Source of the DNA: a phage
Sequence record: PX393110.1
Length of the DNA stretch: 64,000 nucleotides
Reading direction: 5' to 3' (one strand)
Part shown: in pieces, positions 17,501 to 37,150 of the stretch
Layout of the letters: every line of letters begins with the position of its first letter
How positions within the stretch are numbered: position 1 is the stretch's first letter
Position numbers and translations under genes: made by a program
Notes under the pieces: model-generated
What the model was told of the DNA's origin: nothing
What the model saw: only the letters and a program-made list of their open reading frames with translations
The model's database searches: none

Positions 17501-17834
17501 CCAGAGTCTTCTTATGCGTATAGCCTGGGGATATAGTCGCAGCTAATTGGCGACCCAAAGTCATTACATGCTTAACGCCATGCTTTTCACACAGCTCGTA
17601 AAAGTTGAGACCATCCTTATCACGGATTTCGTCTATGTTAGACAGCTCTTCGAAAGTACCATCTCTGTTGATCTCTATCAGACCAACTTTGTTATGTACC
17701 CCAGCTGTAATTAGCGCTACATCAAGAGTTTGGCCAGCATTCGATGCAGCAAACGGAGGAGCATCATTATTCTCGCGCTCGTCCCCGATAATGACATAGT
17801 CTACTTCGCCAACTAAATTGTGATTCAGAAACAT
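14547..17834 (-). CDS. family A DNA polymerase
   Basis: motif A DFSQAEL (cf. DYSQIELR), motif B KGGKAINFALVYQ (cf. RRxAKxxNFGxxYG), motif C VHDS (cf. VHDE); start refined to MFLNH at 17834. Confidence 0.8.
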   Translation of the reverse strand: MFLNHNLVGEVDYVIIGDERENNDAPPFAASNAGQTLDVALITAGVHNKVGLIEINRDGTFEELSNIDEIRDKDGLNFYELCEKHGVKHVMTLGRQLAATISPGYTHKKTLDKLLKFPLGNIPEYNFKLAVVMHHAQVERNLDSDPGILDSWIDRFKFLVFGQKESEYNVEWEFVDWNGLQEFLNDIMWSGYKGYLGLDYESNAADLFSVDFRITGFSIAKKIGDKDAKSVWYNVTGKETPEQLGFLRDFLVKFQEQIVAFNCPYEIKTTWHWLDVFCKFIDAIVTLTMHGERSSLKDAARRYLHADFWEGSVHEWKDRWAAIFKDMKKRCTPEQIAEIQSGEFNIEHHLALKAEYEKLVEAAPTKAAKNRIPVNFNQFMLDKIAELSEELEESEIIYLASFYPYEWGAIPREILGEYCCYDSAYGVFIHEMFYDKYKDGYNVYMLHPYLASIFEANGIRWDDEEATKEYDYCMSKMSEHLVSLIPNLKLPPDQMLTARDFIYRELPYENVWYTPGGQERRKMVTTLAGKIADLSGFFNPNSNDKANKEKFWKAYLTDEVEMCTMLWSVMDQLKVHDYWDKTLLAISKGFVPKDSEKLEREFFREFPVDEILTRIIQFGDTAESKHVRELIAMCVQDGLEAYEERFTNKFKADVLDAQLAIHQLMLGVNPDDESTWNTSFRMMVDLKMYKRHYKQIATYIDGKVGRQTVWAAKLRDGLPPLRVRKYDWDNPKLQDGEDCYIMTPDFNSLAAITSRWQAGIHNVPGDSTLRNIWVSKPEGGLWYHQDFSQAELVMVSVFADDSDMKNVFLSGGDMHRFVSSIAYQKSEPEVTDVERKGGKAINFALVYQSSLESVAMVATGGDMERAQNLMDTVFGKFTGLKAWIDATKKNGFETGYAYGYFGNRINLEGTNVNSTSVNYPIQNTSSMVAGAGMYFLDEDFKQSNMEAETHIMVHDSLDTTSGINEMFKVFQKTRENMEGAIRELWDMPMRTDIEFGARGGSLMGLDDYGVNEDGSGWLIVEGRESALEKLLEALDQYSQWTPYVEILKEKEKLNSIANSFNSKSGIRSDGTGWGCKYIELKAKITLEPKHGEKAA

Positions 17835-17864
17835 GTTTAACTCCAAAAATAAACCTCCGCCAAT

Positions 17865-20497: not shown

Positions 20498-20813
20498 AGA
20501 CTAAACTCTGACCCGCATGGATGCGTACTGCATGGTTCTTGTTAGAGTTAGTCAGACGAATCCACTTACCTTCGTCTGTAGAGAATACCTGAGCAGTTAA
20601 GCCCAGGTAAGATACAGAAAGATTAGAGATAGAGTCGACAGTTACCGTACTATCTACCGGAAACTCTACCGATGAGCCAGCTCCAACAATGTAGCCACTC
20701 TTACGCAGCTTCATTGGAGCAATACGACTACTGTGCTGATCGTCAGCACCAATTGTCCGAGCGAACGAGCTCTCAACGTAAACAGTTTCAGGAATATTAA
20801 TCTGCATTGCCAA
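20487..20813 (-). CDS. hypothetical protein
   Basis: 108 aa ORF. Confidence 0.3.
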   Translation of the reverse strand: MAMQINIPETVYVESSFARTIGADDQHSSRIAPMKLRKSGYIVGAGSSVEFPVDSTVTVDSISNLSVSYLGLTAQVFSTDEGKWIRLTNSNKNHAVRIHAGQSLVYGN

Positions 20814-21396
20814 TAGTCTCTTTAACCAGGTGCTCTATTGAACTACCATGTGCCATATGGAGAAGAGACTGGAGAGTACCCATCCATACATCATCACTCA
20901 CTTCGTCTTTGTACTTATTGAAGCAGGTACTGAAGATGTTGCGGCAGTTCTCCAGCTCGCTTTCGCCAAAGAAGATGTTACCCATGCTGAACTCAGTCAT
21001 GATCTCACGAGATACCGCAATAGCATCTGCAACTTTACAGATGAACTTAGCTTCGGCAGATGCAGGAGTGCGGAAAGTAGGAAGTACCTCTTCCCAGATT
21101 TCCTGCTCAACTTTATTCAGAGTCTCTTTTAACTCTGGGAAGCGAGCCTTAGCAGTGTAGGGGACATCACCTGTAAAGATCTCTGGAATGTCGTGAACCA
21201 ACGAGTACTGATTTACTTCCAGACCCTGCTCAGCAGTTAAAAATCCATCCATCACCAGTTTCTGAACAATCAGAGTAGAGTAGTAAGTAACTTCGAAGCT
21301 ATGCTCCGAGATAGTAGAGCGATGAGACAGTACTTGCTTACCTGCGAAACGATTCACGTTATTGGTACACACTGGTACCTTAAAAAGATCTTTCAT
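20797..21396 (-). CDS. HD-domain phosphohydrolase, YfbR-like 5'-deoxynucleotidase (putative)
   Basis: H...HD...D pattern: EHSFEVTYYS ... LVHDIPEIFTGDVP. Confidence 0.55.
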   Translation of the reverse strand: MKDLFKVPVCTNNVNRFAGKQVLSHRSTISEHSFEVTYYSTLIVQKLVMDGFLTAEQGLEVNQYSLVHDIPEIFTGDVPYTAKARFPELKETLNKVEQEIWEEVLPTFRTPASAEAKFICKVADAIAVSREIMTEFSMGNIFFGESELENCRNIFSTCFNKYKDEVSDDVWMGTLQSLLHMAHGSSIEHLVKETIGNAD

Positions 21397-21479: not shown

Positions 21480-22553
21480 TTATTCCAGAATAAACGGAGA
21501 CTTATCCCCGAGGCGGTTCGCGACCCATTTCACGAATGGTGAATTAACCAGATGCTCGCACTGGATAGACATGTGAGCTCCAGTAGTCTTACATAGATAA
21601 TGAGCGCCTGCTAACCACATCATCACATCCAGAGTTGATCCTGGTTGGAACTCTCGACCAACATCTTCCATTACGTATTCTAGAATACTGTGATCGCTAT
21701 TATAACGAGAAGCAGCATCTTCAAGAGTAGCGATGTAATGCTGGAAGTAGGTACGGATCTTATACCAGGAATTAAGTGATCCGAGATCAATCGTAGTTAC
21801 CGGAGCTTCATTAATGTCGTCAACATAAGCTCGGATATTACTTACCTGCTTCTTGATGTTCGACACTTCCGGATACCAGTGGAGATCATCCGTCATCACC
21901 ACATAGTTGCCCATATCTACTTTGAGCATAGTTGCGATGATTTCCTGGATGATCGTGAACTCCACCAGATTAACGTTAGTCAATCCCCAGATTAGATCAT
22001 TACTACGGTTGAATACCGTGCAGTCCAGACCACCATTACGGTACTTAAACGATAGAGCAATGTTGCAGATCATATCTGCGGTATTGATGCTGCCAATGCT
22101 GTTTACCAGACCTACATCAGAATCACGGCTGGGATCGTGAATAGTAGCCACGCACTTACGGTTACCCAGGTCAGAACGGAGGCGGTCTGTTACAGTCTGG
22201 AGTTGATCGTAGTTATACAGACGCTCACCGTAAGCACCACGCCAGGTAACCATATCATCGCTAAACATCTTAGCGCGAGGAACCATAATCGACATCCAGT
22301 TATCGATTGCATAGCCACCAGACAGTACCCACAATACTTCCCCCATAATTCCGAGGATATTGTCTTTACGTTCTGGATGAGCCATCCAACGATTAATCGG
22401 ATTACTTAACTCAACTACAGCATGACCGATGGATACTACCGCCGAAGAGTTAACAGAAGTTCTGGACTTCTGCAACTCACCAGCCTTATCCATAGTATTG
22501 ATGCTGTTAACCAGGATTTCAGTATTACTGTTACCGCGAATTACCGAGATCAT
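21480..22553 (-). CDS. thymidylate synthase-family enzyme (ThyA homolog; possible pyrimidine C5 hydroxymethyltransferase)
   Basis: ILGIMGEVLWVLSGG (cf. ELLWFLxGxTN), WRGAYGERLY (cf. PVYGxQWR), ADMICNIALSFKY (catalytic Cys region, cf. ALPPCH..QFYV), LDCTVFNRSNDLIWGLTNVNLVEF (cf. LSCQLYQRSxDxxLGxPFNIASYALL). Confidence 0.6.
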   Translation of the reverse strand: MISVIRGNSNTEILVNSINTMDKAGELQKSRTSVNSSAVVSIGHAVVELSNPINRWMAHPERKDNILGIMGEVLWVLSGGYAIDNWMSIMVPRAKMFSDDMVTWRGAYGERLYNYDQLQTVTDRLRSDLGNRKCVATIHDPSRDSDVGLVNSIGSINTADMICNIALSFKYRNGGLDCTVFNRSNDLIWGLTNVNLVEFTIIQEIIATMLKVDMGNYVVMTDDLHWYPEVSNIKKQVSNIRAYVDDINEAPVTTIDLGSLNSWYKIRTYFQHYIATLEDAASRYNSDHSILEYVMEDVGREFQPGSTLDVMMWLAGAHYLCKTTGAHMSIQCEHLVNSPFVKWVANRLGDKSPFILE

Positions 22554-23272
22554 TTAGAGTCCTTACGCACTGAATCAATAGACTTAACTGCAGAGGACAG
22601 TAACTCCAGACGGGCCTCCTGAGGGATCATACCAGATGGCTCGTTCAGGATCATAATACCTTTACCAGTATTAGTAAAACGAGCTGTGATTGATCCAGGA
22701 TACACCGGATGATTCAGAGTTACAGAATTACACAACGCAGCACCGAATCGCTCCTCGTAGGCACGCATAGTTACCTTAAGGAGAGTAGAACTGACTGCTA
22801 CAGAGTATTCAGGATCAACAACACGGAAGTTATTGTCCTCAATACTCTTATCCTTCGTATTGAAGAACAGAGTCATGTTATAATAATCAATAGACTCGTT
22901 ACTGAGACGTAATGCCTCATCACGAGCTTCCTGGCTGGCAAACATACTGTTATGCAGCAGGAAGTAAACGTACGAATCGAATACCGCACGATCACTGACG
23001 ATCAACTCGCCACGATTGTAGGCATCCTTGAACATCTGAGTTCGCTGACGAATAAGACGCAGCTGGAACTCTACCGCTTCCATAGGATCTTCTACAGCTA
23101 AGCGCAGAATATCCATATGGGATGTTACTCCCAGAGGAAGATGGTCACGAGTCTGTACTGCACGGAAGGTACATTCGGTTGATTCTTCCCAACCTTTAGC
23201 CAGGGTAGATTTACCGGTACCCTGCGCACCAGACATAATTACACTGTAGCCTGGGATACTATAGTCTCTCAT
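22550..23272 (-). CDS. P-loop nucleotide/nucleoside kinase
   Basis: Walker A MSGAQGTGKSTLA; start refined to MRDYS (ATG at 23272) with GGAGAGAA upstream. Confidence 0.55.
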   Translation of the reverse strand: MRDYSIPGYSVIMSGAQGTGKSTLAKGWEESTECTFRAVQTRDHLPLGVTSHMDILRLAVEDPMEAVEFQLRLIRQRTQMFKDAYNRGELIVSDRAVFDSYVYFLLHNSMFASQEARDEALRLSNESIDYYNMTLFFNTKDKSIEDNNFRVVDPEYSVAVSSTLLKVTMRAYEERFGAALCNSVTLNHPVYPGSITARFTNTGKGIMILNEPSGMIPQEARLELLSSAVKSIDSVRKDSK

Positions 23273-23304
23273 TATTCTCTCCAATTAAGAATCTTTCCCA
23301 CATT

Positions 23305-23361: not shown

Positions 23362-24333
23362 CTAGCTAAACTTATACCAGCGAGGTCTCATACGGATCTC
23401 GTGATTCAGTTTATGTAGTTTCGAGAATTCGCAGAATGAGTTGGTGAACATCTGGCGAGTATAGAATCGCTCATCCTCTGGCATGAAGTGGAACCATTTC
23501 TCCGGTTCCCATGAATACCCGAAATGTGCACATATCTCTTTGATGTTCTGATACCACCATTCCACGAATACCTGATAACCACAGGGAGGATTCTGGTCAT
23601 TAATCATGTACCATACCCCATCCTGAGTCCCAGGTCCACATACGATAGCGTCATTATCTGTATACGCAGTCTCTTTAGAGTAGGACATAGTTGCCCAGCA
23701 TTGATATGCCATGAACGGACCTAATCCAGATACCTGTAACAGATGCTCGATAGCCTCGGTAGCGAACGGAGACTTCCATGCCCATAAGATAGGATCACTG
23801 TAGGTCTTCACCAGATAGGCTCTGGCAGCTACACTGTACTTAATATCCTCTGGACATACTTCATTAGCCATCTTAACTGCTGTGCTAAGGAAGTAGGCAT
23901 TTGATTGCTGTGGAGCGGTGAACGGAGGACCATCCTCATAACGACGTAGCTCTTCGCGACCCATGTTATGTATGTCGTCATAGCTCATCTCATAAAGAGG
24001 AAGGACTCTGCGGAAGCGATCCATATATGAATCACCACGGTTTATCATCTGGAAGAGTACTACATTAAGTGCTTTACTCTCCCAGCTTAAAGAATCGTTC
24101 TCCAGAATGTTCTTAATAGCCCACACTGTTTCACGATCGTGCTTACGGAACACGTTAGTGAATTTGAACTTACTAATCCACTTATGTTCCGTCCACGGAG
24201 GAGGCAGCTTAAGCACCTCCTTCTTATAATAAACCTCTGTACGTTCACGGTTATACTCCACATACTCCCGTAACTCCTCAGGATTTATCATCCCAAGGAG
24301 TCCTTCGTAATGCAGACCTAACGGTGTTGACAT
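23362..24333 (-). CDS. hypothetical protein (323 aa), translationally coupled to upstream GT
   Basis: start ATG overlaps upstream stop (TAATG at 24331-24335); Trp/aromatic-rich, no recognisable motif. Confidence 0.45.
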   Translation of the reverse strand: MSTPLGLHYEGLLGMINPEELREYVEYNRERTEVYYKKEVLKLPPPWTEHKWISKFKFTNVFRKHDRETVWAIKNILENDSLSWESKALNVVLFQMINRGDSYMDRFRRVLPLYEMSYDDIHNMGREELRRYEDGPPFTAPQQSNAYFLSTAVKMANEVCPEDIKYSVAARAYLVKTYSDPILWAWKSPFATEAIEHLLQVSGLGPFMAYQCWATMSYSKETAYTDNDAIVCGPGTQDGVWYMINDQNPPCGYQVFVEWWYQNIKEICAHFGYSWEPEKWFHFMPEDERFYTRQMFTNSFCEFSKLHKLNHEIRMRPRWYKFS

Positions 24334-25412
24334 TAAAGAATACCTTCTTTGGTAAAGTAGTCGATTACTTCATCCTGAAGTTCTTGTGCGTAATCCTTGC
24401 GCAGATACAGATTCTCATACTGATGTTTCAGCAGAGCATCACGATCTTTCAGTTTCTCTGCAATCTCCGCATTACTGGAGACGATCAGAGGAGCCAGCAG
24501 CTCTTCGGGGACGCCGCTCCGGATTATTGTTCCGGCAGCATCTTTATCCACCAACATCAGAGTACCAGAGCTCAGGTATTCATAATAACGGTTAGGTGGG
24601 CTGGTATAGAACGAGTTACTAGAGTTCCAGTCTTCAATAAGCAGTACCGCTGCGTATTTAGCCACTTCATCCAGCATCTCTGACAGCTTAAACTTAGGCA
24701 GCCAGTTAATAGGAGCAGCAGGCCCCAGCCACTTACGTTCTTTAGGATCCAGCTCTTCCCAGTTTTCCTGCTCGTAGCCGTCAAATCCAGCAAGACCACC
24801 AGTATGTTTAGCGATAGACATCTGAGCTTTGTAGCTAGGCACCGACATAAACAGTTCCAGACCATCCTGCTGGGAGAAGTACTGAGTGAACTTATGGAAG
24901 CGACCTTCACGAGCAGCACCGTAATACAGCAGGCTATTGTCTGGTTTATCAGATGAGCCGTAGCGAGGCTTACGACCAGGAACGTAGGTAAGACGGTTCC
25001 AGTTAATGTGGTGATAGTTCTCTTCGCTAGGGGAGTACTGATTACCCCAGGAAGTACGCTCGAATGCTGCTACTACTTTAAATGTCGTAGCTGCTGTGAT
25101 GTGTCGCCACTGCGGACCCTGGATACGCATACGTGATGAATAATCTTGACCAATCCAGTAAAACTTAGCTCCGAGGTCCGCCTGGTCTACCCAGAATTTA
25201 TACATCTCATCGCGGAACTTACAGAAGGTAGGAACACCATTGACGGCGATGATCACGTCATATTTGGTGCCATCTTCCATAGCCTTAACAAACTTAGGAG
25301 TATCATCCAGCAAGTCCGCCTGAAGTCCGTAGGCTAACCAGGATGCCAGAGTGTTACTGGCGATGATGGATTTATCGCTGCATGGCGAAAAGTTAGTTAC
25401 TGCAATTTTCAT
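24333..25412 (-). CDS. GT-B fold glycosyltransferase, phage DNA beta-glucosyltransferase-like (putative)
   Basis: MKIAVTNF... N-terminus, LLYYGAAREGRFHKFTQYFSQQDG and NRYYEYLSSGTLMLVD segments resemble T4 beta-glucosyltransferase as recalled from memory; not searched. Confidence 0.4.
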   Translation of the reverse strand: MKIAVTNFSPCSDKSIIASNTLASWLAYGLQADLLDDTPKFVKAMEDGTKYDVIIAVNGVPTFCKFRDEMYKFWVDQADLGAKFYWIGQDYSSRMRIQGPQWRHITAATTFKVVAAFERTSWGNQYSPSEENYHHINWNRLTYVPGRKPRYGSSDKPDNSLLYYGAAREGRFHKFTQYFSQQDGLELFMSVPSYKAQMSIAKHTGGLAGFDGYEQENWEELDPKERKWLGPAAPINWLPKFKLSEMLDEVAKYAAVLLIEDWNSSNSFYTSPPNRYYEYLSSGTLMLVDKDAAGTIIRSGVPEELLAPLIVSSNAEIAEKLKDRDALLKHQYENLYLRKDYAQELQDEVIDYFTKEGIL

Positions 25413-25440: not shown

Positions 25441-25470
25441 GTAACAGCCTTTTAGCTCATCAAAGAAGCG
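25441..25470 (-). promoter_or_regulatory. class-1 conserved motif, copy 5 (variant)
   Basis: GTAACAGCCTTTTAGCTCATCAAAGAAGCG. Confidence 0.35.
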
Positions 25471-26494
25471 AATTAGCTGATGCCCAACTCAGCCACTTAT
25501 CATTGAGATCAGTTAAGTAGGAATAGTCTTTGTTTAATCCGAATACCGTACGGTTAGTTCCATCGAACTTCATTACCCCAGCACCAGGAGCTCGGATAAT
25601 TGCATCTTCGGTAGCCGTACAATACTCTTTCAAGTATTCCTGGATGTTGGGACGAATACGACGGAACGAGCTATCTGCAGAGTCATAGTGGAACATATCT
25701 GCACAATGCCACTGTACGTAGGACTTATCTGGACGGCTAAGCAGCTCATTACGAGTTACCATATCTTTCGGAGAGTAGCCTAGCTTAGCTACGGTGACTT
25801 CGTGAATACCACCGCCATTAGAAGAGGTGTCCATTAACCAGTTCTCATCCCAGTAGAACGAGCTACCAGTACCGGTTACCTGGCCCACTTTCCATCCCAT
25901 CGCCATACCTTTAAACAACAGGTAGCAATCCTCACCTACAGTGAGTTGCTGGAAGGTCTTATCGAACAGCCAGAACATCTTCTCGCTAGTCTTGACCATA
26001 ATACCCAGGTCAGTAGCCGGAGCAGTGTTATTATGGGACTGACGATCGCAGAGTTCAACAATCTTGTAGTTACGGTTCTTGAAGCTACGGACGAACGCCA
26101 TCTCAAACTCAGATCCCTCGAAGTCGATAATGGACCGATCCAGATGGAAGATATCGTCGGCGAACCAGACATCATCATCCACGAAGTAGCAGATGTCTGG
26201 GCACCAGTCCTGCTTCTCCATTACAATCCATGCTTTATCCAGAGCATGGGCACGGATTTCTCCGATTACCGGATTTTCGTACTTAGGGCTATGACAGAAA
26301 TTAAATTGCTCATCCCCACCAAACTGCTCTTCCAGAATTGCCTTATCTTCTTCGGAGGCATCCTGAATAAAGTAGAAGAAGCGATACTCAATAGAGTCGT
26401 CAGTCTTTTTAGCATCTTTGAACGACTGAATCTGACGGAGTACCGACTTCAGACGATGATAGGTTGGGATGATAAAAGCTACTTTGGTGGTCAT
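25460..26494 (-). CDS. family-2-like (GT-A fold) glycosyltransferase
   Basis: VAFIIPTYHR N-terminus and DxD motif YFVDDDVWF. Confidence 0.5.
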   Translation of the reverse strand: MTTKVAFIIPTYHRLKSVLRQIQSFKDAKKTDDSIEYRFFYFIQDASEEDKAILEEQFGGDEQFNFCHSPKYENPVIGEIRAHALDKAWIVMEKQDWCPDICYFVDDDVWFADDIFHLDRSIIDFEGSEFEMAFVRSFKNRNYKIVELCDRQSHNNTAPATDLGIMVKTSEKMFWLFDKTFQQLTVGEDCYLLFKGMAMGWKVGQVTGTGSSFYWDENWLMDTSSNGGGIHEVTVAKLGYSPKDMVTRNELLSRPDKSYVQWHCADMFHYDSADSSFRRIRPNIQEYLKEYCTATEDAIIRAPGAGVMKFDGTNRTVFGLNKDYSYLTDLNDKWLSWASANSLL

Positions 26495-26500: not shown

Positions 26501-27112
26501 TTATCCAATTTGACGAACTAAGCGAAACCCTTCGGCGTACGGCCACTGGGCGGAATATCCACGTAAGGTGGCTAGGGCTAAGATACTCTGGGTATCTCGG
26601 TCTGACTTAATCTGGGAGTCGAATCGTCCCATAGCCTGGCACTTACACTCAATATCGTCCTTATTCAGACGCTCGAAGTAATTAGGTTCCATCTGACCGA
26701 ACTGGGTCAGGGACTCGGCATACTCATATTCCAGGATAAGCCAGTTATACGCTCGGAGAGCTACACGAGCAGCATGATTAACTAGTTGATGGTCCTGGTG
26801 TAGGCTACTGAACGGAATATAGACTACATCCGGCCTGATTTTAGCAACATAGTCCGCAATATCCTTAGCCAATTGCGGAATATCCTTCTGAGTCATACCA
26901 TCGCCTGTGGAGGCATCGTTACGCTCCAGGCAATGTACTTCTTTGATATTCGGATAGACACCGAATGCTGCTTCGGCTTCGCCACGACGGGTCTCGTCCG
27001 GAGCAGTTACTTCGAGGATGAAGAATTGGTCATCGCGGAATTTGCTCATAATACCTCCGCAACCCAGAATCTCATCATCGTGATGTGGGCTGATAATCAG
27101 TCGTGACTTCAT
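26501..27112 (-). CDS. PIG-L/LmbE-family N-acetylglucosaminyl deacetylase
   Basis: LIISPHHDDEILGCGG (family hallmark AHPDDE) and second His-rich motif SSLHQDHQLVNH. Confidence 0.6.
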   Translation of the reverse strand: MKSRLIISPHHDDEILGCGGIMSKFRDDQFFILEVTAPDETRRGEAEAAFGVYPNIKEVHCLERNDASTGDGMTQKDIPQLAKDIADYVAKIRPDVVYIPFSSLHQDHQLVNHAARVALRAYNWLILEYEYAESLTQFGQMEPNYFERLNKDDIECKCQAMGRFDSQIKSDRDTQSILALATLRGYSAQWPYAEGFRLVRQIG

Positions 27113-27127
27113 TATTAATCCTCGCTA

Positions 27128-27163
27128 CACAAAAATGGGGTTAGGCCGTAGAGACCTAACCCC
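27128..27163 (-). terminator. intrinsic terminator-like hairpin
   Basis: minus-strand RNA: GGGGUUAGG-loop-CCUAACCCC followed by AUUUUUGUG; sits between class-1 copy 6 and the LmbE start. Confidence 0.45.
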
Positions 27164-27179: not shown

Positions 27180-27210
27180 TTAACAGCCTTTTAGGTCATC
27201 AAACAGGCGG
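27180..27210 (-). promoter_or_regulatory. class-1 conserved motif, copy 6
   Basis: TTAACAGCCTTTTAGGTCATCAAACAGGCGG; overlaps the 3' end of the transporter gene. Confidence 0.4.
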
Positions 27211-28581
27211 AGTTTCCTTAGCCAAGAATACTTTAGGTACAAAGATCTTGAGGAACCCGAATAGAATACACAATACCCCAATCAGTACCGGAACAGCCGA
27301 TACAGCTACCAGAGTCTTCGTTACAGTTACTACGTCGCCACCTGCCCAGTTAAGTGCAGCAGCAACTACACCCATGCTTACAATCCAGAATACACGAGTT
27401 CTAGGAGCGGTCATGGACTCTACCGTAATACCTGCTGAGTCATGACCTGTAATAAAGAACAGGATCACAGACACGAGGGTAATTACCGAGAATATCCATC
27501 CGCCTGGGAAATTAGCCAGAAGCTGGAAGATATCCTGAGCACCATGTTGTAGACCAGCTACACCGAATACGGTAAACCAGACGTTACTGATGATGGTAGG
27601 GAACAGTACACATCCGAGGATCAGTTCGCGAATAGTACGGCCGTAAGAGATACGTGCCACAAACGCTCCGACGAATAATGCCCAACCTACCCAGGCTGCA
27701 TAGTAAGCATAAGGCCAGCTAGCCAGCCATTGCTTCTCTTCAGCAGTACTGCCGATGTTTACTGACATAGGAATAATCTGGAGCAGATAGCTACCAGAAT
27801 AGGTGATGGTCTTCCAGAGGTATTCGAAGAATGTACCACTTACAGCAACGAATGCCATAATAGATAGAGCTACGATTACATTATATCTGGATAACCACTT
27901 AACCCCACGATCGACACCAGTTACGGCACTAAGTACAGTACCCAGAGTCAGGAGCGCGATAATGGTGTAAGGACCAACATCCACTCCCAGGAACTCTTTA
28001 AATCCGGAACTGATCGGGCCTACTGCGTAGACGAACGACAGGGTTAAGCCTATGATGGTAGAGAAGAGTAAGCTTATCGTATTAAGGTTATTCAGAGCTC
28101 GGGACTTGAATAACTGATTAAGCGGACGGTCTTCACCACGTACATGCAGTAAGTACCCGAATGCCACCCCTACGACTGCATAAACTGCCCATGCGTTAAG
28201 TCCCCAGTCAAAGAAGGTAGTTACCATATTCTGACGTTCGGACATACCCTCCTGCTGATGGTACATAGGTTCGAGTACACCATAATAAATCATGGATACA
28301 CCCATACCGGTACTAAACATCATGGAGTAATAGGTAAAGCGATTATATTTCGGAGCACCTTTACCCAGCTTAATGTTACCATGCTTGCTGAATACAAAGA
28401 ATGCCAGGAACGCTAGGAAGATCAGCGAAGACCAGGTAAATATGAATCCATACTGAGATATGAATACAGACTTACTCCAGTCCATTACAGCACCAAACTG
28501 GGTGGGAGCTAACATAATGGCGAGTATGATACCCACCGTTACTAGCACCGTCCCCCAGGTAACTACCTTTGAATCTGACAT
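27199..28581 (-). CDS. BCCT-family (betaine/carnitine/choline-type) secondary transporter
   Basis: multi-TM protein; FSKHGNIKLGKGAPKYNRFTYYSMMFSTGMGVSMIYYGVLEP (cf. FSRYGNIRLG...WFAMLFxAGMGIGLxFxGVxEP) and VGAFVARISYGRTIREL (cf. GMFLARISRGRTIREF). Confidence 0.7.
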   Translation of the reverse strand: MSDSKVVTWGTVLVTVGIILAIMLAPTQFGAVMDWSKSVFISQYGFIFTWSSLIFLAFLAFFVFSKHGNIKLGKGAPKYNRFTYYSMMFSTGMGVSMIYYGVLEPMYHQQEGMSERQNMVTTFFDWGLNAWAVYAVVGVAFGYLLHVRGEDRPLNQLFKSRALNNLNTISLLFSTIIGLTLSFVYAVGPISSGFKEFLGVDVGPYTIIALLTLGTVLSAVTGVDRGVKWLSRYNVIVALSIMAFVAVSGTFFEYLWKTITYSGSYLLQIIPMSVNIGSTAEEKQWLASWPYAYYAAWVGWALFVGAFVARISYGRTIRELILGCVLFPTIISNVWFTVFGVAGLQHGAQDIFQLLANFPGGWIFSVITLVSVILFFITGHDSAGITVESMTAPRTRVFWIVSMGVVAAALNWAGGDVVTVTKTLVAVSAVPVLIGVLCILFGFLKIFVPKVFLAKETPPV

Positions 28582-28584: not shown

Positions 28585-29493
28585 TTATTCCTCAATTACG
28601 CCCTTAGCGATTAACTGGCGACGGACGTATGCGTAGCCAGCAGGTGAAGTAGCGAGGACGATGTCCGCACTACGGAAGTTGGTTTCGATATAGAAGCACT
28701 CCTGAAGATCCCGCGTACAGAAGAGCTCAGTGCTCATCATACCCTCGCGTACGTTACATGCGTCTGCAACGAATTGCGCAACATCTTCGAAGTGGTCTAC
28801 CGAATGACTATAGCCGAATCCACGGGCATCAGTAGATATAACGTAGTTATGGCAGTACGGAGTGAAGTCAGTATCTTCGTAGGATTTACCCTGGATAGTG
28901 AAAATATCTGCATAATCCTTGAACCCGCTCGGGCTAACCAGAAGATCCCAGGCAACTACCATACCGTCGATAACATCTGCTTGAAGTACCAGAGAAGTAG
29001 TATATTCGTCCGGCGCCTTATCACAGACCAAAATTGGGGAGTCCCCCAGAAGGTCCGACATAGTGCCTGCACCCTTGCCCCCGTGAACACGATCACGGCG
29101 TACAAACGCCTCCTGAGGCTTCTGGTACAGTCTAAACGACGGTACAATCAGCGAATCAGGCATAGTTCCCAGATTAGCTTCGGAGCGAAGGCAGGATAAT
29201 TGGTCAGCTTTAGACCACGTACTTTCGATAGCGTGCAGATCGTTACCGATTTTGGTATAGATGTAGCTTTCCGGATTGCGGTACTTACCCTGATTCAGCT
29301 CTTCGATAACCGAGTCGAAATAAGGAAGTCGTACTGATCCCTCACGAGGAGCAGTTAACGCTACTGAACCATGCTTGGTATGATCCTGATCAACTACCAT
29401 AACCTGGTCCAGACTTACACCCATCTTAAGAATCTGGGATAGTGTAGCTGCTGTGTGGTTAGTGCAGCCAATCATCAAATCTAACTTCTTCAT
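28585..29493 (-). CDS. hypothetical enzyme, possibly ATP-grasp-like ligase
   Basis: glycine-rich HGGKGAG and C-terminal FYIETNFRSAD resembling the ATP-grasp E-x-N-x-R motif; weak. Confidence 0.3.
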   Translation of the reverse strand: MKKLDLMIGCTNHTAATLSQILKMGVSLDQVMVVDQDHTKHGSVALTAPREGSVRLPYFDSVIEELNQGKYRNPESYIYTKIGNDLHAIESTWSKADQLSCLRSEANLGTMPDSLIVPSFRLYQKPQEAFVRRDRVHGGKGAGTMSDLLGDSPILVCDKAPDEYTTSLVLQADVIDGMVVAWDLLVSPSGFKDYADIFTIQGKSYEDTDFTPYCHNYVISTDARGFGYSHSVDHFEDVAQFVADACNVREGMMSTELFCTRDLQECFYIETNFRSADIVLATSPAGYAYVRRQLIAKGVIEE

Positions 29494-29594: not shown

Positions 29595-30335
29595 TTACTT
29601 TAATTCGGAGAGATCTGCTATCTTCACCTTAGCTGTTACATCCCAGATTCCTTCACCAAATCCGGTATCTTCCAGCAGCTTAGGCACTTCACGTTTCTGT
29701 ACCTTAGACTGCTCGTACTTAAGCAGAGGAATATTACCGGTCTTATCCGATTGATCCCACAGATAAGTAGCAGCACCAATGTTATCGAACAGTGCGAGAT
29801 CTGGATTAAACTGGGTAAGGAGTCGGCAGTCCCAGTGAGATTTATGTTCCTCGAAAGGATTAGTCTCCGTACCACGCTGACGATACTCGTAGTTAGGAGT
29901 ACCGATCACGATTTTAGCCTTAGACTGGAATAGCTTAGACAACACCATAAGCCCATCTTCGCTATCCAGATGCTCCAACACATCTAGCCAGATAATAGTG
30001 CCGAATTTATCCAGCTCTTCAATAGGAAGATCTTTCAGCAGTTCAACGATATTGCAGATGTAGATATCGCTATATACATTTACACTGCCTTTGATGTAGT
30101 CTTCGCAGATGTCCAGACCTGTGATCTGACCTTCGAATCCTGCGTTACGGAGAGCTAGACCGATCTCTCCACGACCTAATCCCATATCCAGGATTGGCCC
30201 GGAGATAATTTCGTTACGGAGCATCCATTGGAGAAAGTGCTTCTGGACTAAGTAGGAGGTACCTCCGTTGCCCAGTGAAGCCTTCGTGACCTTAGTACCA
30301 GGAACGAAGTTACACTCGATATGTTTACCAAACAT
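29595..30335 (-). CDS. class I SAM-dependent methyltransferase (small-molecule type)
   Basis: motif I ILDMGLGRGEIG; post-I acidic GLDICEDY; TIIWLDVLEHL. Confidence 0.55.
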   Translation of the reverse strand: MFGKHIECNFVPGTKVTKASLGNGGTSYLVQKHFLQWMLRNEIISGPILDMGLGRGEIGLALRNAGFEGQITGLDICEDYIKGSVNVYSDIYICNIVELLKDLPIEELDKFGTIIWLDVLEHLDSEDGLMVLSKLFQSKAKIVIGTPNYEYRQRGTETNPFEEHKSHWDCRLLTQFNPDLALFDNIGAATYLWDQSDKTGNIPLLKYEQSKVQKREVPKLLEDTGFGEGIWDVTAKVKIADLSELK

Positions 30336-30439: not shown

Positions 30440-31687
30440 TTACAGTTTACCGATCATCTTCTGAATCATCTCATCAGAAGTCTGATTCTCTACCTTAGCA
30501 CGACGCTCTTGCAGATTAGCAATGCGGTCGTCGTGATCTTTCTTACGCAACATGCTAATGCTACGGCTAAGGCAGGAATTCAACACTTCCTGGGTAATAC
30601 CGAGAGCTTTGATGATCTGAGCATCAGACTTATCCTGCATAACCAGCTCGCCCACTTTAGGAAGAATCTGGTAAATCTCGATGTCTCGGTCAATCTTCTT
30701 AAGCGACTCAGTCTTATGGACGGAGAATGCCTGATTGTAGAGAGCCATCGTGACTGCAATCCAGTCGCGAATACCCATCGTCACCAATTGGCCATTATAA
30801 GCTACCTGGATACGATGCGAGCGGTTCATGTAAGCAATATTCATGCATGCTTCGTGAACCTCGTCCATATCGATGGTTCTGATACGTGGAGCCTTCATTA
30901 CTCGGATATAGATCTTATCCTTGGACATGTTCTTGACCAGGATCTTACCTTCGGACAGCCACTTATTCAGGAAGCCGATGCGAGGAGTAATCACCTCACC
31001 AGACCCGATGATGTCGATGGTATCGGTATTGACACGAGTCACCTTAAGGCTAAGACCGAGGCGACCTACACCAGTTTCCCACAGCTGCTTAAGGTCAGAC
31101 TTAGCAGGCACGATATCGTAACCGTACTGAGCCTTAAGCAGATTGTAGTCATCATGCTCATAAGCATCCAGCAGTGACTCATAGGTGAACGCTGGAATAC
31201 GAGACTGAATCCCCGTAGCCCATGAGAAGGTACCGTACATCAGAGCATACGGAATCGGCACCGGAAGGTACGCATATTCCATCTTCTCTTCACCTTCCAC
31301 CTGCGGAACATAGTCCGCTAAGCCGAAGTAGTACTCTGCACGATCTTCGTTCAGGCCAACCTTCGTGTAACGAGGAGCCGCACCAGGTACTTCTTCCAAC
31401 AGTTTCACACCGAAGGAACCCTGACCATCAATAGCTCCGATACGAGCCAGACGAGAGATAGTTCCATCGATAGACTGGTCGCCGAATGGGTGGAGCGACT
31501 GAGTCTCGGAGATAGCACTCAGAGTCCCAACCAGCTTCCCGCGAGCAATGCTATTCAGCGCCATGTAGATACGACGCTGAGCAGGAATCAGGCCATCGAT
31601 ACCAGGAACTACACGATGAAGAGCACAGTACACACTGTAGTCAGTGTAGTTCTTGGTGATGAATTCAGAAATCTTTACCTGTTCCAT
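30440..31687 (-). CDS. type II DNA topoisomerase, DNA-cleavage subunit (GyrA/gp52-like)
   Basis: IDGLIPAQRRIYMAL matches the GyrA-type RDGLKPVQRRILY segment. Confidence 0.6.
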   Translation of the reverse strand: MEQVKISEFITKNYTDYSVYCALHRVVPGIDGLIPAQRRIYMALNSIARGKLVGTLSAISETQSLHPFGDQSIDGTISRLARIGAIDGQGSFGVKLLEEVPGAAPRYTKVGLNEDRAEYYFGLADYVPQVEGEEKMEYAYLPVPIPYALMYGTFSWATGIQSRIPAFTYESLLDAYEHDDYNLLKAQYGYDIVPAKSDLKQLWETGVGRLGLSLKVTRVNTDTIDIIGSGEVITPRIGFLNKWLSEGKILVKNMSKDKIYIRVMKAPRIRTIDMDEVHEACMNIAYMNRSHRIQVAYNGQLVTMGIRDWIAVTMALYNQAFSVHKTESLKKIDRDIEIYQILPKVGELVMQDKSDAQIIKALGITQEVLNSCLSRSISMLRKKDHDDRIANLQERRAKVENQTSDEMIQKMIGKL

Positions 31688-34384: not shown

Positions 34385-37150
34385 CTACTCTTCCATAAAC
34401 GTAGTTACGTTATTGGAAAGGTAGGCACCGATTTTAGTATTATATCTCTGGAACGTAGGTACATGAGTAACCAGGATGATGTGATTAACCGGAATGTCCT
34501 GGAGAGCATCGATAGCTATGTCCAGAGTATTCACATCCAGATTCTTCAACGACTCATCCAGAATCAGGCATCCAGCACCTTTACTAAGGCTAATCAGCTT
34601 ACCGATGAACAGTACGTCCACCAGGTTCTGCTGACCACCAGAGAGATCAGAATACGGAATCAGGAACTCACCGACTTTGTATTGAACATCAAAGTCAATC
34701 TTGATATTTCCATTAGCCTGTTCACGAACGGTAGAGATGACCATATCACCACCAGTCATCATCGCAGCCACTTCCTTAAAGATAGAAGCAGTTACGTCAC
34801 CGCTATTAGTGAACAGATTCTGATACTCCACCAGCTTCTGATACTTAGGCTGAAGAGTAGCCAGCTCAGAGTTAGCCTTATCCAGCTTCGTCTGAGCATC
34901 GTCCATACGAGACTTAAGACTACGAAGAGTAGCCATAGCTCCGATAGTGGAGTTAATCTCGATAAGCTCTTGTTCCAGCTTAGCGACTTCCTCTTCCAGA
35001 ACTTGCACGGAGGAATAGGACTTAGTCTTATTCTTAAGCACTTCCACATCGCTATTGACGGTATGAATCTTCTGGCGAAGAGTGGCCACATCGTTTAGCA
35101 GACCGGACTTACGACGGAGTTCGACTAATTCGTTATTCTTAAGAGCCAGCTTCTGTCGGATTTCATCAGACTTAGGAGCCTTACTTATCTCAGCTTCCAC
35201 AGCATCCAACTTAGACACAGATACAGATCCCTGTGTCTCGAGCTCATCCATCTTACTTCTGATAGAGCTCTGTACCTGCTTAATGTCCTCTTCCTTAAGA
35301 GACTGTTTACAGGTAGGACAGGTAGTGGGAATATTCCGCATTTCTGTCTCTAACTTAGTCAACTCCTGTTCCAGACGAGTCAACTCCTTAGTTAGAGATT
35401 CGCTCTGGTTATGGAGCGAACGAATATTCCCTTCTACTTCCGACACTTCGGCATCTAGCAGAGTAATTTCGCCACGGACATTAGCGAGTGCGGAGTTAAC
35501 CTCTTCTTCGCTAAAGTCTATATTGAACGCAGCCAGCGAGTCTTCCAACATCTGAAGACTCTGTAGCTTACTATCCAAATTACCCAGCTCCCGGATCTTC
35601 TGACGAATATCATCAATCTGAGGAAGGATTCGGGATTTAGCCTCTTCCAGATCACTTACGTCCTTGAGTCTGGAGAAATCGTGATCCTCCATCGTCTTAA
35701 GGACTTCTTCCTGAGCAGTAACCTGAGTCTGGAGATTACCGATCTCTACCTTACAGTTCTTAGCCGAGGCCTTTGCGACAGCTTCGTACTGGTTAATTAC
35801 GGTAAGACCAAGCATCTTCGTTATCAGGTTGATACGCTCGTTGAATCCGAACTGGCTAAGGAACGGAGGACTGTTCTGGGAGCGGTACAGAAGATCGAAG
35901 TGTTCGAGGAATGGCAGCATCTCCCAGAGCTTAGCTTCACGCTCACGAATACTTCCGCCATCCATCTCATCGCCATCAATCCAGACTCGGAACGTCTGAC
36001 CACCAGCCCAATGGCGACTGATCAGGAATTCACGACCACCATACTCCAGCATCACTTCTACCAGAAGATGGTCCTGACCGAGTCTCACCACGTTACGAGG
36101 ACTGTCGCTACCAGTTAAGCAGTAGTTCAGAGCTCGTAACAGCGAGGATTTACCATTACCGGTTTCGCCGTAGAGATAAGTCAGACCTTTCTTAAAGTCC
36201 AGCTCCAACTTATCGATGCTACGGAAGTTCTCTACCTTAATGCTATTTAAGGTAAAGTTGAGGTCGAATACCGACTCGGAACGATCAACGTGGGTAGACA
36301 TCTCATCATGGATATCTTTAAGACCTTTAGCCCGAACGACTTTATCGATAACTTCTTCGACATCAATAGACTTAACCGAGATGCGTGAAGCATCCATCAT
36401 CTGAGCTCGTTCACGAACTACCAGATGTGGGTAATTGTCCAATCCGACAGGAACCTCATCTTCCCAGTACATCTTTAAGTACTTAAAGGAATCAGACTCT
36501 ACCGGAACCCGCTGCCAGGAAAGATCTTTGAGATCCAGCAGTACCAGACTGCCTTCCTGACTATCACCCATCCCATGAGGAATAGGCACGTTCACCGAGT
36601 GAGTATGACCGATGCTGATAGGACGGTGGATGTCACCCGCAAATCCCAGATCGTACTTAGTATCGTCGAACTCCTGACCGAACATCGAGGACAGGGTAAT
36701 ATGGCCGATTAGGACATCTACTTTATCCTGGATGAAGCTAAAGTCCTGAGTCGGACGCCAGTCGCTGAAGGCGACCTTACGGCCACCTAAGTTCAGGATC
36801 TTACCATCGACATACTCCGCCTTACCAGCCAGGATCGGCACCAGCGAGTTCTGATAGTGATCAGCATCTACCGATTTGGAGTTAATGTCGTGGTTACCCA
36901 GAATGTAGTAAATCTCGGAGAACTGCTCACCGAGGATGTCCATAAACTGGGAAGTAGCATGTGCAATCTTAGGCTCGTGCTGAGCCTTATGCACCAAGTC
37001 GCCAGCGATAGATAGGCAAGTAACTTTATGTTCCTTACCCATCTCCACCATACGATGAGCCAATCTGATAAACTGCTTTAGCCGAAACCCTTCCGAGTTA
37101 TGTTGCTGAAACTCATGAATATGAATATCAGCAGCAATTAACATTTTCAT
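34385..37150 (-). CDS. fused Mre11-Rad50 (SbcD-SbcC) recombination nuclease/ATPase
   Basis: N-terminal phosphoesterase motifs (ADIHIH, GDLVH, GNHD, GHTH); then Rad50 Walker A YGETGNGKSS, long coiled coil, ABC signature LSGGQQ; one uninterrupted 921-aa ORF. Confidence 0.65.
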   Translation of the reverse strand: MKMLIAADIHIHEFQQHNSEGFRLKQFIRLAHRMVEMGKEHKVTCLSIAGDLVHKAQHEPKIAHATSQFMDILGEQFSEIYYILGNHDINSKSVDADHYQNSLVPILAGKAEYVDGKILNLGGRKVAFSDWRPTQDFSFIQDKVDVLIGHITLSSMFGQEFDDTKYDLGFAGDIHRPISIGHTHSVNVPIPHGMGDSQEGSLVLLDLKDLSWQRVPVESDSFKYLKMYWEDEVPVGLDNYPHLVVRERAQMMDASRISVKSIDVEEVIDKVVRAKGLKDIHDEMSTHVDRSESVFDLNFTLNSIKVENFRSIDKLELDFKKGLTYLYGETGNGKSSLLRALNYCLTGSDSPRNVVRLGQDHLLVEVMLEYGGREFLISRHWAGGQTFRVWIDGDEMDGGSIREREAKLWEMLPFLEHFDLLYRSQNSPPFLSQFGFNERINLITKMLGLTVINQYEAVAKASAKNCKVEIGNLQTQVTAQEEVLKTMEDHDFSRLKDVSDLEEAKSRILPQIDDIRQKIRELGNLDSKLQSLQMLEDSLAAFNIDFSEEEVNSALANVRGEITLLDAEVSEVEGNIRSLHNQSESLTKELTRLEQELTKLETEMRNIPTTCPTCKQSLKEEDIKQVQSSIRSKMDELETQGSVSVSKLDAVEAEISKAPKSDEIRQKLALKNNELVELRRKSGLLNDVATLRQKIHTVNSDVEVLKNKTKSYSSVQVLEEEVAKLEQELIEINSTIGAMATLRSLKSRMDDAQTKLDKANSELATLQPKYQKLVEYQNLFTNSGDVTASIFKEVAAMMTGGDMVISTVREQANGNIKIDFDVQYKVGEFLIPYSDLSGGQQNLVDVLFIGKLISLSKGAGCLILDESLKNLDVNTLDIAIDALQDIPVNHIILVTHVPTFQRYNTKIGAYLSNNVTTFMEE

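Follow-up and report, generated by a model that had tools for sequence, protein, structure and literature searches.

We analyzed a 64,000-nt stretch of DNA (sequence record PX393110.1, referred to as the window) from a lytic E. coli phage, in which an ATG-to-stop open reading frame encoding 460 aa lies at 27199..28581 on the minus strand. The translation contains two segments, FSKHGNIKLGKGAPKYNRFTYYSMMFSTGMGVSMIYYGVLEP and FVARISYGRTIRELILG, that a preliminary description of the locus had taken as the glycine-rich and Trp-rich hallmarks of a BCCT-family transporter. To determine if the family assignment was correct, the protein was searched against Pfam, which returned a match to BCCT (PF02028) with an E-value of 4.3e-92 and a score of 309.5 bits against a cut-off of 27, covering residues 7-446 and profile positions 1-481 of 485. 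A sequence search of the PDB aligned residues 9-447 with BetP (E 3e-48; BetP residues ~60-544), the TMA transporter, BetT, DddT and CaiT. These matches are far beyond chance, and we conclude that the observation made in the preliminary description is real. From the alignment to BetP, we infer that the protein is the 12-TM core of a LeuT-type transporter, and there are no regulatory tails at either terminus.

We next asked how common such a gene is among phages. A tblastn search found BCCT-like sequence in 27 of 50,697 phage records, of which only 4 look like genuine phage genomes (IME392, EP_H11 and two Vibrio phages), while the rest are unannotated or oversized records that look like bacterial sequence. 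This supports the earlier statement that transporters of this kind are rare in phages. The gene is not new as an annotation, because IME392 and EP_H11, which are 93-95% identical in DNA, already carry it as "putative Bcct family transporter" (AXY86083) and "high-affinity choline uptake protein" (WBU87634) in GenBank. All of the NCBIfam models for betaine, choline and carnitine carriers scored far below their cut-offs (betaine_BCCT NF047988, 243 against 650; BetT NF007399, 155 against 695; CaiT NF002887, 105 against 541; YeaV NF007412, 111 against 647; TIGR00842, 235 against 407.55), and the public label of high-affinity choline uptake protein BetT is therefore not justified.

To ask whether the predicted substrate site is preserved, we aligned the protein with characterized and uncharacterized family members. 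The glycine-rich unwound TM3 hinge (BetP A147-G153) reads S90 T91 G92 M93 G94 V95 S96 in the phage protein, keeping the BetP G149-M150-G151 core, and the TM4 aromatic residues of the onium-binding box (BetP W189, W194 and Y197) are present as W126, W131 and Y134. W374, W377, R387 and T467 (BetP numbering) are also retained, which argues for a functional binding site and transport cycle. In contrast, TM8 reads AYYAAWVGW instead of the canonical FYWAWWISW, such that only two of the three tryptophans of the prism (BetP W373/W374/W377, equivalent to PsBetT W327/W328/W331) are kept, as A296, W297 and W300, and W371 is Tyr. This signature is shared by the whole phage clade and by two bacterial homologs (P0006 and P0007, the latter from Zobellella aerophila). 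BetP, E. coli BetT and all but one (P0091) of the generic homologs keep all three tryptophans, E. coli CaiT keeps the first two with Tyr at the third, and every one of them keeps W371 and W373. W327A/L in PsBetT impairs choline transport. Given the altered TM8 signature, the substrate is probably not classical choline or betaine, and the change of W373 to Ala makes the substrate class itself uncertain. G153 is Ser, S468 is Gly and T250 is Leu, which leaves the coupling ion uncertain as well. The substrates named individually in the preliminary description (choline, betaine, carnitine and ethanolamine) are each not supported.

These results bear on two explanations that we consider less likely. 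The first, also raised in the preliminary description, is that the gene is an osmoprotection or host fitness gene that boosts uptake of compatible solutes to keep the infected cell productive. Family membership alone favors this, as most characterized BCCT carriers serve osmoprotection. The absence of N- and C-terminal domains of the kind that give BetP and BetT their osmosensing tails, the low NCBIfam scores, the non-canonical TM8 signature and the translational coupling and transporter swap described below all argue against it, and E. coli already has ProP, ProU and BetT. Osmoprotection is therefore disfavored and we regard it as unlikely. The second is a non-transport membrane role, such as depolarization, superinfection exclusion or lysis timing, built on a degenerate transporter scaffold. 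Phages do encode membrane proteins for such roles, but nothing specific favors one here, and because the substrate-site and hinge residues are retained and the gene is full length with no decay and under selection as strong as that on topoisomerase, we consider this very unlikely.

The strength of selection was estimated by comparison with IME392, EP_H11 and L015, a relative at 70% identity (L-handles denote contigs, each carrying a lineage of the ligase family described below). dN/dS was 0.02-0.05, and against L015 the transporter is the most conserved protein of the cluster, with a dN of 0.073 as compared with 0.23 for the adjacent ligase, 0.20 for topoisomerase A and 0.11 for the thymidylate synthase-like (TS-like) protein. 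The GC content of the gene (0.461) equals the window mean (0.460). Recent horizontal acquisition and a decaying gene are rejected on these grounds. A host origin is also rejected, because no match was found in 5,426 complete E. coli genomes and identity to E. coli BetT and CaiT is 20-24%.

Immediately upstream of the transporter, at 28585..29493 on the minus strand, is a gene for a 302-aa protein from an orphan family with a predicted ATP-grasp fold, which had not been recognized previously. Sequence searches of this protein yielded no Pfam, NCBIfam, PHROG or PDB hit, and neither a family profile searched against the PDB nor Pfam searches at E<=10 for every member gave anything meaningful. Structure prediction with AF2 from a four-sequence alignment was of low confidence (pLDDT 35) but was rescued by an alignment of nine sequences. 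In these nine sequences E270 and R274 of the YIE270-T-N272-F-R274 motif and K140 are invariant, and N272 is Asn in eight of nine (Asp in P0108). The correspondence of these residues with the Mg/ATP-binding motif and catalytic residues of biotin carboxylase or CPS rests on resemblance between motifs rather than on a residue-level superposition. The two genes are tightly coupled, with a 3-nt gap between the ligase stop and the transporter start and a Shine-Dalgarno sequence, GAGGA, at 28589..28593 on the minus strand, inside the 3′ end of the ligase gene and 7 nt before the transporter ATG. A terminator-like hairpin (11-bp stem with 7 GC pairs) followed by a T-tract, found by a consensus scan, lies directly after the transporter stop at 27127..27163 on the minus strand, with the hairpin at 27137-27163, and would close the two-gene unit.

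We then asked if the pairing recurs. The ligase family has only 8 representatives among 1.84 billion, and scans of IMG/VR and of JGI metagenomes for further loci found no relatives. Of nine divergent lineages, six have a BCCT gene directly downstream of the ligase (the window with IME392 and EP_H11, P0101, L015, L017, L009 and L013), at 30-71% ligase identity, and in relatives the two genes are between 35 nt of overlap and 3 nt apart. The most distant lineage, L014, has an MFS transporter in the same position, whose best matches are organic-acid:H+ symporter families (TIGR00895, 132 bits on a half-length fragment). A transporter swap with a constant ligase argues that the ligase acts on an imported small molecule, plausibly an acid. 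The remaining two lineages, L012 and L016, have a soluble protein directly downstream, on contigs of only 1.2-1.4 kb. All lineages with a BCCT gene are related phages, and part of the synteny may therefore be inherited rather than functionally enforced.

Due to the location of the pair within a predicted modification island, we examined the neighboring genes, all on the minus strand. Directly downstream of the transporter, 26501..27112 encodes a 203-aa PIG-L/LmbE-family metal-dependent deacetylase (PF02585, E 6.7e-14) with intact PHHDDE and HQDH motifs. Its best NCBIfam hit is BshB1, below cut-off, and its PDB hits are TT1542 and diacetylchitobiose deacetylase. PIG-L directly follows the transporter in three lineages, including L009 (46% identity) and L015, but is not adjacent in L013. 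Next are two orphan proteins of 344 aa (25460..26494) and 359 aa (24333..25412, the stop of which overlaps the start of the next gene). Searches of Pfam, NCBIfam, PHROGs, the PDB and 5.8 billion proteins gave only close relatives and, for the 359-aa protein, a sub-threshold GT-B-like hint (Glyco_trans_1_2, E 0.017), while a glycosyltransferase role for the 344-aa protein is suspected from motifs only. The gene at 23362..24333 encodes a 323-aa protein with the 5-hmdU DNA kinase helical domain (PF18723, E 4.8e-35), homologs of which occur in 375 phage records, many with ViI-like (e.g. Maynard, LIMEstone1) and M6-like (ZC01) names, although one preprint calls the same gene aGPT-Pplase and reports that no 5-HMUDK was detected. 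Further along are a 244-aa P-loop kinase-like protein (22550..23284; AAA_28, PF13521, E 2e-9), syntenic with the TS-like gene in L009, L013 and L015; the 357-aa TS-like protein (21480..22553; PF00303, E 4.7e-12), the presumed dUMP hydroxymethylase, the ortholog of which is listed as the TS of the 5hmdU pathway (PMC12686479); and a 199-aa HD/YfbR-like 5′-deoxynucleotidase (20797..21396; PF12917, E 1.7e-14). On the other side of the ligase, 29595..30335 encodes a 246-aa SAM-methyltransferase-like protein for which Methyltransf_25, 23, 31 and 11 all score below their gathering cut-offs. Other genes take its place in L015, and no Methyltransf family is listed for any called gene in L009 or L013, indicating that it is an accessory gene and not part of the conserved core. 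The gene set meets the definition of a 5-hmdU-based thymidine hypermodification cluster, with a TS-like protein and a 5-hmdU DNA kinase-type protein clustered with predicted tailoring enzymes.

In every long contig the pair sits among thymidine hypermodification genes. In the window, L015 and L013 it is embedded among TS-like, AAA_28, HD, HMUDK_hel, HMUD2, ADDT and GT4 genes, and the gene order around it is rearranged between lineages. In L009, however, the pair is next to small ORFs and topoisomerase rather than kinase or GT genes. This raises the possibility that the pair works on something other than DNA, making a soluble conjugate (anti-defense, signaling or metabolic) or decorating a protein, the virion or the host envelope, with its place in the cluster being historical. 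ATP-grasp enzymes frequently modify proteins (RimK, TTLs) and LicD-type modules normally decorate envelope glycans, and although we cannot exclude this reading, we consider it doubtful.

Based on these results, we suggest that the phage inserts a working BCCT-type secondary transporter into the host inner membrane to import an organic solute that E. coli does not make itself, most likely an onium (quaternary-ammonium-type) compound, and that the ATP-grasp enzyme translated from the same bicistronic message activates a carboxylate with ATP and ligates the imported compound into the thymidine hypermodification. In the chemistry that we favor, a sugar or amino group would first be attached to kinase-activated 5-hmdU in DNA, the PIG-L enzyme would then unmask an amine by deacetylation, and the ligase would finally acylate that amine with the imported betaine-type acid. 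HexNAc on phage DNA bases has precedent (bioRxiv 10.1101/2023.12.21.572611), but because the 344-aa and 359-aa proteins could not be shown to be glycosyltransferases, the glycosyltransferase step and the acceptor amine are conjecture. E. coli makes no choline or carnitine and makes glycine betaine only from imported choline, which explains why a dedicated importer would be needed. We consider this the best explanation, at about an even chance of being correct. What the analysis establishes is family membership, the (predicted) ATP-grasp fold, the tight coupling and recurrence of the pair, purifying selection, the altered binding-site signature and the hypermodification gene context, whereas transport itself and its direction, the identity of the substrate, use of the imported compound by the ligase and placement of the product on DNA are inferred. 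For IME392 and EP_H11, T-modification has likewise been inferred only from gene content (PMC12686479; bioRxiv 10.1101/2025.03.26.645540). Classical BCCT substrates are chemically inert apart from a carboxylate or hydroxyl, which counts against this explanation. The interpretation in the preliminary description is thus partly supported: the family, the adjacency to ATP-grasp-like and methyltransferase-like genes and the location in a DNA modification island are confirmed, and of the two functions it proposed, import of a precursor for derivatizing DNA or sugar is better supported than osmoprotection.

It is also possible, although we consider it unlikely, that the module is the same but the chemistry is reversed, with the imported compound (for example choline or another amino or hydroxy onium compound) acting as the nucleophile that the ligase joins to a carboxylate already on the DNA adduct, such as an appended amino acid or a uronic acid as in SP-15-type modifications. 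L013 encodes an amino acid:DNA transferase (ADDT), which would leave a free carboxylate on DNA, L015 encodes a pyruvoyl-type (PS-decarboxylase-like) enzyme typical of amino-acid-derived adducts, and ATP-grasp amidoligases that amidate glucuronate exist (Campylobacter Cj1438). The Vibrio phages described below also clearly pair a BCCT-like protein with choline-activating enzymes. Against this reading, the clade lacks the tryptophan equivalent to BetT W327, no LicA/LicC/LicD-type genes were found among the window neighbors scanned (20.8-33.7 kb), the MFS protein of L014 resembles organic-acid symporters, and fully methylated onium compounds have no amine to ligate. We also considered whether the 184-Da unknown residue reported for phage YerA41 could be phosphocholine, but YerA41 has no BCCT hit and the mass does not fit a condensed phosphocholine.

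Characterized phage DNA hypermodifications are all built from host-made metabolites such as amino acids, nucleotide sugars and polyamines, and literature searches combining BCCT, ATP-grasp, phage and hypermodification found no paper linking them. A conserved importer-ligase module within a thymidine hypermodification cluster would add exogenous solutes as a new input. In a more far-reaching and tentative reading, which is somewhat less likely than not, the module would install an exogenous, permanently charged onium moiety on thymidine, and the chemical state of the viral genome, and hence its resistance to host nucleases, would depend on the solutes available outside of the cell. This would be the first virus-encoded solute importer dedicated to nucleic acid modification and, together with the Lic-like module of the related Vibrio phages, would point to a wider import-and-decorate strategy in the PolA-UDG (RP13-like) phage group. 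These phages belong to a clade whose DNA resists sequencing and restriction, and a medium-dependent modification would be of practical relevance for phage therapy and for DNA modification enzymology. The analysis also defines an uncharacterized BCCT subfamily with an altered tryptophan signature and a new ATP-grasp family.

Among known systems, BetP, the Na+/glycine betaine symporter of C. glutamicum, and the carriers BetT, CaiT, TmaT and DddT belong to the same Pfam family, but identity to BetP is only 31% and the phage protein, in addition to its altered TM8 and missing osmosensory termini, is encoded by a lytic phage and coupled to a ligase. The closest cellular relatives are in a short BCCT subfamily of Gammaproteobacteria that includes P0006 and P0007 (40-44% identity in the homology search and 37-43% in the alignment; 40% and 37%, respectively, for Zobellella). 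They have a similar core-only architecture of ~450-463 aa and share the loss of W371 and W373, but are chromosomal, have no ATP-grasp partner and have substrates that are likewise uncharacterized. The Zobellella gene sits between an esterase and BKACE plus 3-hydroxyacyl-CoA-DH-type genes, next to a GBBH-like dioxygenase, which is a carnitine/gamma-butyrobetaine catabolic cluster where the protein would import for catabolism.

The thymidine hypermodification pathways of phages ViI, M6, PaMx11, SP10 and PhiW-14 (Lee et al. 2018, 2021) likewise cluster a TS-like hydroxymethylase, a 5-hmdU DNA kinase-type protein and post-replicative tailoring genes, but use host-made amino acids, and the 2021 pathway paper does not mention a transporter, an ATP-grasp ligase or a deacetylase. 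IME392 and EP_H11 have been grouped with SP-15, YerA41, RP13 and Carin-5, the RP13-like phages with glycosylated, phosphate-containing hypermodified T, by their PolA-UDG polymerase and 5hmdU pathway genes (PMC12686479; bioRxiv 10.1101/2025.03.26.645540), although none of those phages was retrieved with the BCCT or the ATP-grasp query. Mycothiol and bacillithiol biosynthesis (MshA/BshA GT, MshB/BshB PIG-L deacetylase and MshC/BshC ATP-dependent ligase) is an analogy only, since here the ligase is a predicted ATP-grasp enzyme rather than MshC or BshC, the GT is unproven, the acceptor would be DNA and the acyl donor would be imported, but a PIG-L deacetylase beside an ATP-dependent ligase and candidate GTs fits the logic of unmasking a GlcN amine and then acylating it. 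Finally, the Lic pathway of phosphocholine decoration (LicB/LicA/LicC/LicD) has a phage version in Vibrio phages 1.031.O and 150E35-1, in which overlapping genes encode a cytidylyltransferase-choline kinase fusion, a BCCT-like protein and LicD, an independent parallel to the pair described here. A Lic-type pathway was rejected for the window because no choline kinase, cytidylyltransferase or LicD was found among the neighbors scanned. The partner in the window is an ATP-grasp ligase, and the BCCT protein belongs to a different clade (23% identity) with a non-canonical Trp signature. One of these Vibrio phages, 1.031.O, shares distant PolA, TopoII and Mre11-Rad50 homologs with this phage, and the logic proposed here is the same, in which an exogenous onium compound is imported, activated and transferred to a macromolecule.

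To determine if the region at 27199..28581 (minus strand) encodes a BCCT transporter, as the preliminary description had claimed from two BCCT hallmark segments, we translated the region and compared the product with family profiles and solved structures. The region is an ATG-to-stop ORF of 460 aa and both segments are present in the translation. Pfam BCCT (PF02028) matched at E 4.3e-92 and 309.5 bits over residues 7-446, covering profile positions 1-481 of 485. A PDB sequence search aligned residues 9-447 with BetP (E 3e-48), with weaker matches to the trimethylamine transporter, BetT, DddT and CaiT. The protein is the bare transmembrane core, with about 8 residues preceding and 13 following the region aligned to BetP 60-544, and therefore the N- and C-terminal osmosensing domains of BetP and BetT are absent. 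Osmoprotection, the other role considered in the preliminary description, is disfavoured. We conclude that the original observation is confirmed and that the family assignment is correct.

We next asked if the gene was already known. The 12-kb region around it is 94.5% and 92.7% identical to the lytic Escherichia phages vB_EcoM_IME392 (116 kb) and EP_H11 (111 kb), respectively, and both records annotate the orthologue, as a "putative Bcct family transporter" and a "high-affinity choline uptake protein BetT". The existence of a phage BCCT at this locus is therefore public, however the BetT label is not justified, because all NCBIfam specificity models score far below their cut-offs, including betaine_BCCT (243 vs 650), BetT (155 vs 695) and CaiT (105 vs 541). 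Two papers place IME392 and EP_H11 in an "SP15/RP13-like" group of phages with a UDG-fused family-A polymerase and, judged from gene content alone, hypermodified thymidine, and neither paper mentions the transporter. In the window, the family-A DNA polymerase is a 1099-aa protein (14547-17846, minus strand) with a ~750-aa N-terminal region that has no Pfam match, and the literature describes a UDG-like domain fused to the polymerase in this phage group. Literature searches found no paper linking BCCT, ATP-grasp, phage and hypermodification, and the 2021 thymidine-hypermodification pathway paper mentions no transporter, ATP-grasp ligase or deacetylase. BCCT genes are rare in phages, occurring in 27 of 50,697 records, of which only IME392, EP_H11 and two Vibrio phages look like genuine phage genomes, and there was no match in 5,426 complete E. 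coli genomes.

The genes surrounding the transporter are all on the minus strand, in the order topoisomerase II B and A, a SAM-methyltransferase-like gene with sub-threshold scores, a 302-aa orphan, BCCT, a PIG-L/LmbE deacetylase, two orphans of 344 and 359 aa, a 5-hmdU DNA kinase helical-domain protein (PF18723, E 4.8e-35), an AAA_28 P-loop kinase-like protein, a thymidylate-synthase-like protein and an HD/YfbR-like nucleotidase. Homologues of the PF18723 protein occur in 375 phage records, including ViI-like and M6-like phages, which are known thymidine hypermodifiers. It is important to note that the annotation of this protein (23362-24333, minus strand) is in conflict, because a 2025 preprint describes an aGPT-Pplase in EP_H11 and IME392 and states that no 5-HMUDK could be detected. 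Judged by its genes, this is a thymidine-hypermodification island, in agreement with the preliminary description, which had placed the transporter inside a modification island. Elsewhere in the window, two separate minus-strand proteins (5330-6898 and 8777-10291) carry RNA polymerase Rpb1/beta' domains 1-2 and 3-5, which looks like a split multisubunit RNA polymerase beta'-like subunit encoded by a ~116-kb phage. A single 921-aa protein (34385-37150, minus strand) fuses an Mre11-like metallophosphoesterase to a Rad50/SbcC-like ATPase with a zinc hook, and two tRNA genes, tRNA-Met(CAT) and tRNA-Arg(TCT), lie at 46979-47054 and 47200-47276 (minus strand).

The 302-aa protein encoded immediately upstream of the transporter had no Pfam, NCBIfam, PHROG or PDB sequence match, even when searched as a family profile, and its family is tiny, with 8 representatives among 1.84 billion. 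Structure prediction with AF2 did not succeed on an alignment of 4 sequences, but on 9 sequences it gave a model with pLDDT 84.5 and pTM 0.86, and the independent BFVD model of the IME392 orthologue superposes at TM 0.98. On the basis of its predicted fold we refer to this protein as the ATP-grasp ligase. Residues E270 and R274 of the motif YIE270-T-N272-F-R274, as well as K140, are invariant and N272 is N in 8 of 9 sequences; by motif alone, this segment looks like the Mg/ATP motif of biotin carboxylase and CPS. The ATP-grasp stop codon (28587-28585) is 3 nt from the BCCT start (28581), and a GAGGA Shine-Dalgarno sequence lies inside the ATP-grasp gene, 7 nt upstream of the BCCT ATG. A strong terminator-like hairpin (27163-27137, 11-bp stem, followed by a T-tract), which is a consensus match only, comes directly after the BCCT stop. 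The two genes therefore look like a bicistronic unit.

To determine if this pairing recurs, we traced the ATP-grasp family through public assemblies. A BCCT lies directly downstream in six lineages, with the two genes between 35 nt of overlap and 3 nt apart. These are the window with IME392 and EP_H11; P0101, a ligase homologue of 71% identity whose pairing with the BCCT homologue P0002 rests on contigs of the same size; L015, with 70% ligase identity; L017, with 36-39% ligase identity and a BCCT fragment (E 1e-18); L009, a metagenomic relative with 30% ligase, 43% BCCT and 46% PIG-L identity; and L013, a metagenomic relative with 30% ligase and 42% BCCT identity. In the most distant lineage, L014 (204-1785), which is represented by a contig of only 1.8 kb, the ligase is followed after a 1-nt gap by an MFS transporter. 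The best NCBIfam matches of this transporter are organic-acid:H+ symporter families, with aromatic-acid, sialate and organic-cation families among its best matches. Two short contigs, L012 and L016, have soluble proteins downstream of the ligase.

In L013 the pair heads a block of genes (5912-14536) encoding GT4, cupin, a cytidylyltransferase (CTP_transf_like), an amino acid:DNA transferase (ADDT), an inositol-1-phosphate-synthase-like protein, 5-hmdU DNA kinase 2 (HMUD2) and HMUDK_hel, which hints at CDP-alcohol or inositol-phosphate (teichoic-acid-like or mycothiol-like) chemistry on DNA. In L015 the methyltransferase-like gene is replaced (3674-7578) by a DXD-GT-like gene, a 340-aa orphan, a phosphatidylserine-decarboxylase-like (pyruvoyl) gene, a weak ATP-grasp_3-like gene and a CxxCxxCC protein, while ATP-grasp, BCCT, PIG-L, the 342-aa and 359-aa genes and HMUDK_hel remain syntenic. 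This region appears to be a variable tailoring cassette next to the conserved core. In L009 the topoisomerase II A subunit (9312-11708) is interrupted by an intein with an HNH domain, which the orthologue in the window (30440-31687) lacks. The invariant core is therefore ligase plus transporter, PIG-L follows in three lineages, and the methyltransferase is accessory.

We then asked if the transporter is likely to be functional and what it might carry. The dN/dS values were 0.047, 0.022 and 0.052 against IME392, EP_H11 and L015, respectively. Against L015 the BCCT had the lowest dN of the five cluster genes compared (0.073, versus 0.23 for the ATP-grasp and 0.20 for topoisomerase A), and its GC content equals the genome mean. 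BetP residues were mapped onto the phage protein through the alignment, which showed that W189, W194, Y197, G149-M150-G151, W374, W377, F380, R387, F464 and T467 are retained, whereas W371 is changed to Y, W373 to A, G153 to S, S468 to G and T250 to L. A non-transport role is unlikely. The canonical TM8 string FYWAWWISW becomes AYYAAWVGW, and the loss of W371 and W373 is shared by the whole phage clade and its two bacterial relatives, while BetP, E. coli BetT and CaiT, and all the generic homologues aligned keep W371, W373 and the WxWW core. In P. syringae BetT, mutating the equivalent of W373 to Ala or Leu substantially impairs choline transport. The substrate is therefore probably an onium-type compound, because the aromatic box is mostly intact, but not bound in the classical way. 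The nearest cellular relatives are short BCCTs of Gammaproteobacteria at 40-44% identity, with the next best hits dropping to 34%. The Zobellella member lies between an esterase and BKACE plus 3-hydroxyacyl-CoA-dehydrogenase-type genes, near a GBBH-like dioxygenase, and by comparison with the Pseudomonas cdh genes this is a carnitine/gamma-butyrobetaine catabolic cluster.

An independent parallel was found in the lytic Vibrio phages 1.031.O (L010 7824-10822, corresponding to MG592415 46171-49169) and 150E35-1 (L011 7827-10828). Each carries three overlapping genes encoding a fusion of a cytidylyltransferase (CTP_transf_like) with a choline kinase (366 aa), a BCCT-like protein (411 aa) with the canonical WxWW signature, and a LicD-family transferase, which GenBank annotates only as "coil containing", "TMhelix containing" and "LicD family". 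Judged from these families, this amounts to a complete Lic-like module for import, activation and transfer (choline, CDP-choline, phosphocholine transfer), although fused nucleotidyltransferase-kinase proteins also serve sugar activation in other phages. The module was found in only these two of 50,697 phage records. Across its whole genome (MG592415; L020-L022), 1.031.O shares distant homologues of the PolA (including the N-terminal region), topoisomerase II A/B, Mre11-Rad50 fusion, helicase and HD proteins of the window phage, and it also encodes a DXD glycosyltransferase, a second cytidylyltransferase, an ACP-like protein and a dCTP deaminase. This gene content suggests that 1.031.O belongs to the same broad hypermodifying group. 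No TS-like or HMUDK_hel homologue was detected at E<1e-4. Two unrelated BCCT clades, recruited next to activating and transferring enzymes in the same broad phage group, strengthen an import-and-decorate reading.

Taken together, the sequence analysis establishes a conserved BCCT protein under selection that is probably an active importer, a predicted ATP-grasp ligase that appears to be co-translated with it, a PIG-L deacetylase next door, a 5-hmdU hypermodification context, and a swap of transporter family with the ligase held constant. That the protein transports a solute, that this solute is one E. coli cannot make, and that the ATP-grasp enzyme ligates it into the DNA adduct are inferences. 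The interpretation offered in the preliminary description is thus supported in part, in that import of a precursor is the best-supported function but remains inferred. In the order of steps we prefer, a HexNAc or another masked amine would be attached to kinase-activated 5-hmdU, PIG-L would unmask the amine, and the ATP-grasp enzyme would acylate it with the imported betaine-type acid. HexNAc on phage DNA has precedent. The organic-acid flavour of the MFS substitute in L014 and the carnitine context of the Zobellella homologue lean towards an imported acid, but only weakly, and the reverse polarity, in which an imported nucleophile is joined to a DNA-borne carboxylate, is a serious alternative. 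We also cannot exclude the possibility that the pair acts on a target other than DNA.

While the BCCT itself was already annotated, the conserved ATP-grasp-transporter module, the divergent BCCT subfamily and a directly testable route to the hypermodification of this phage group are new. We suggest that this system is a thymidine hypermodification pathway that differs from those already known in having a dedicated importer, and that its proposed order of steps is analogous to the GT, PIG-L deacetylase and ligase sequence of mycothiol and bacillithiol synthesis.
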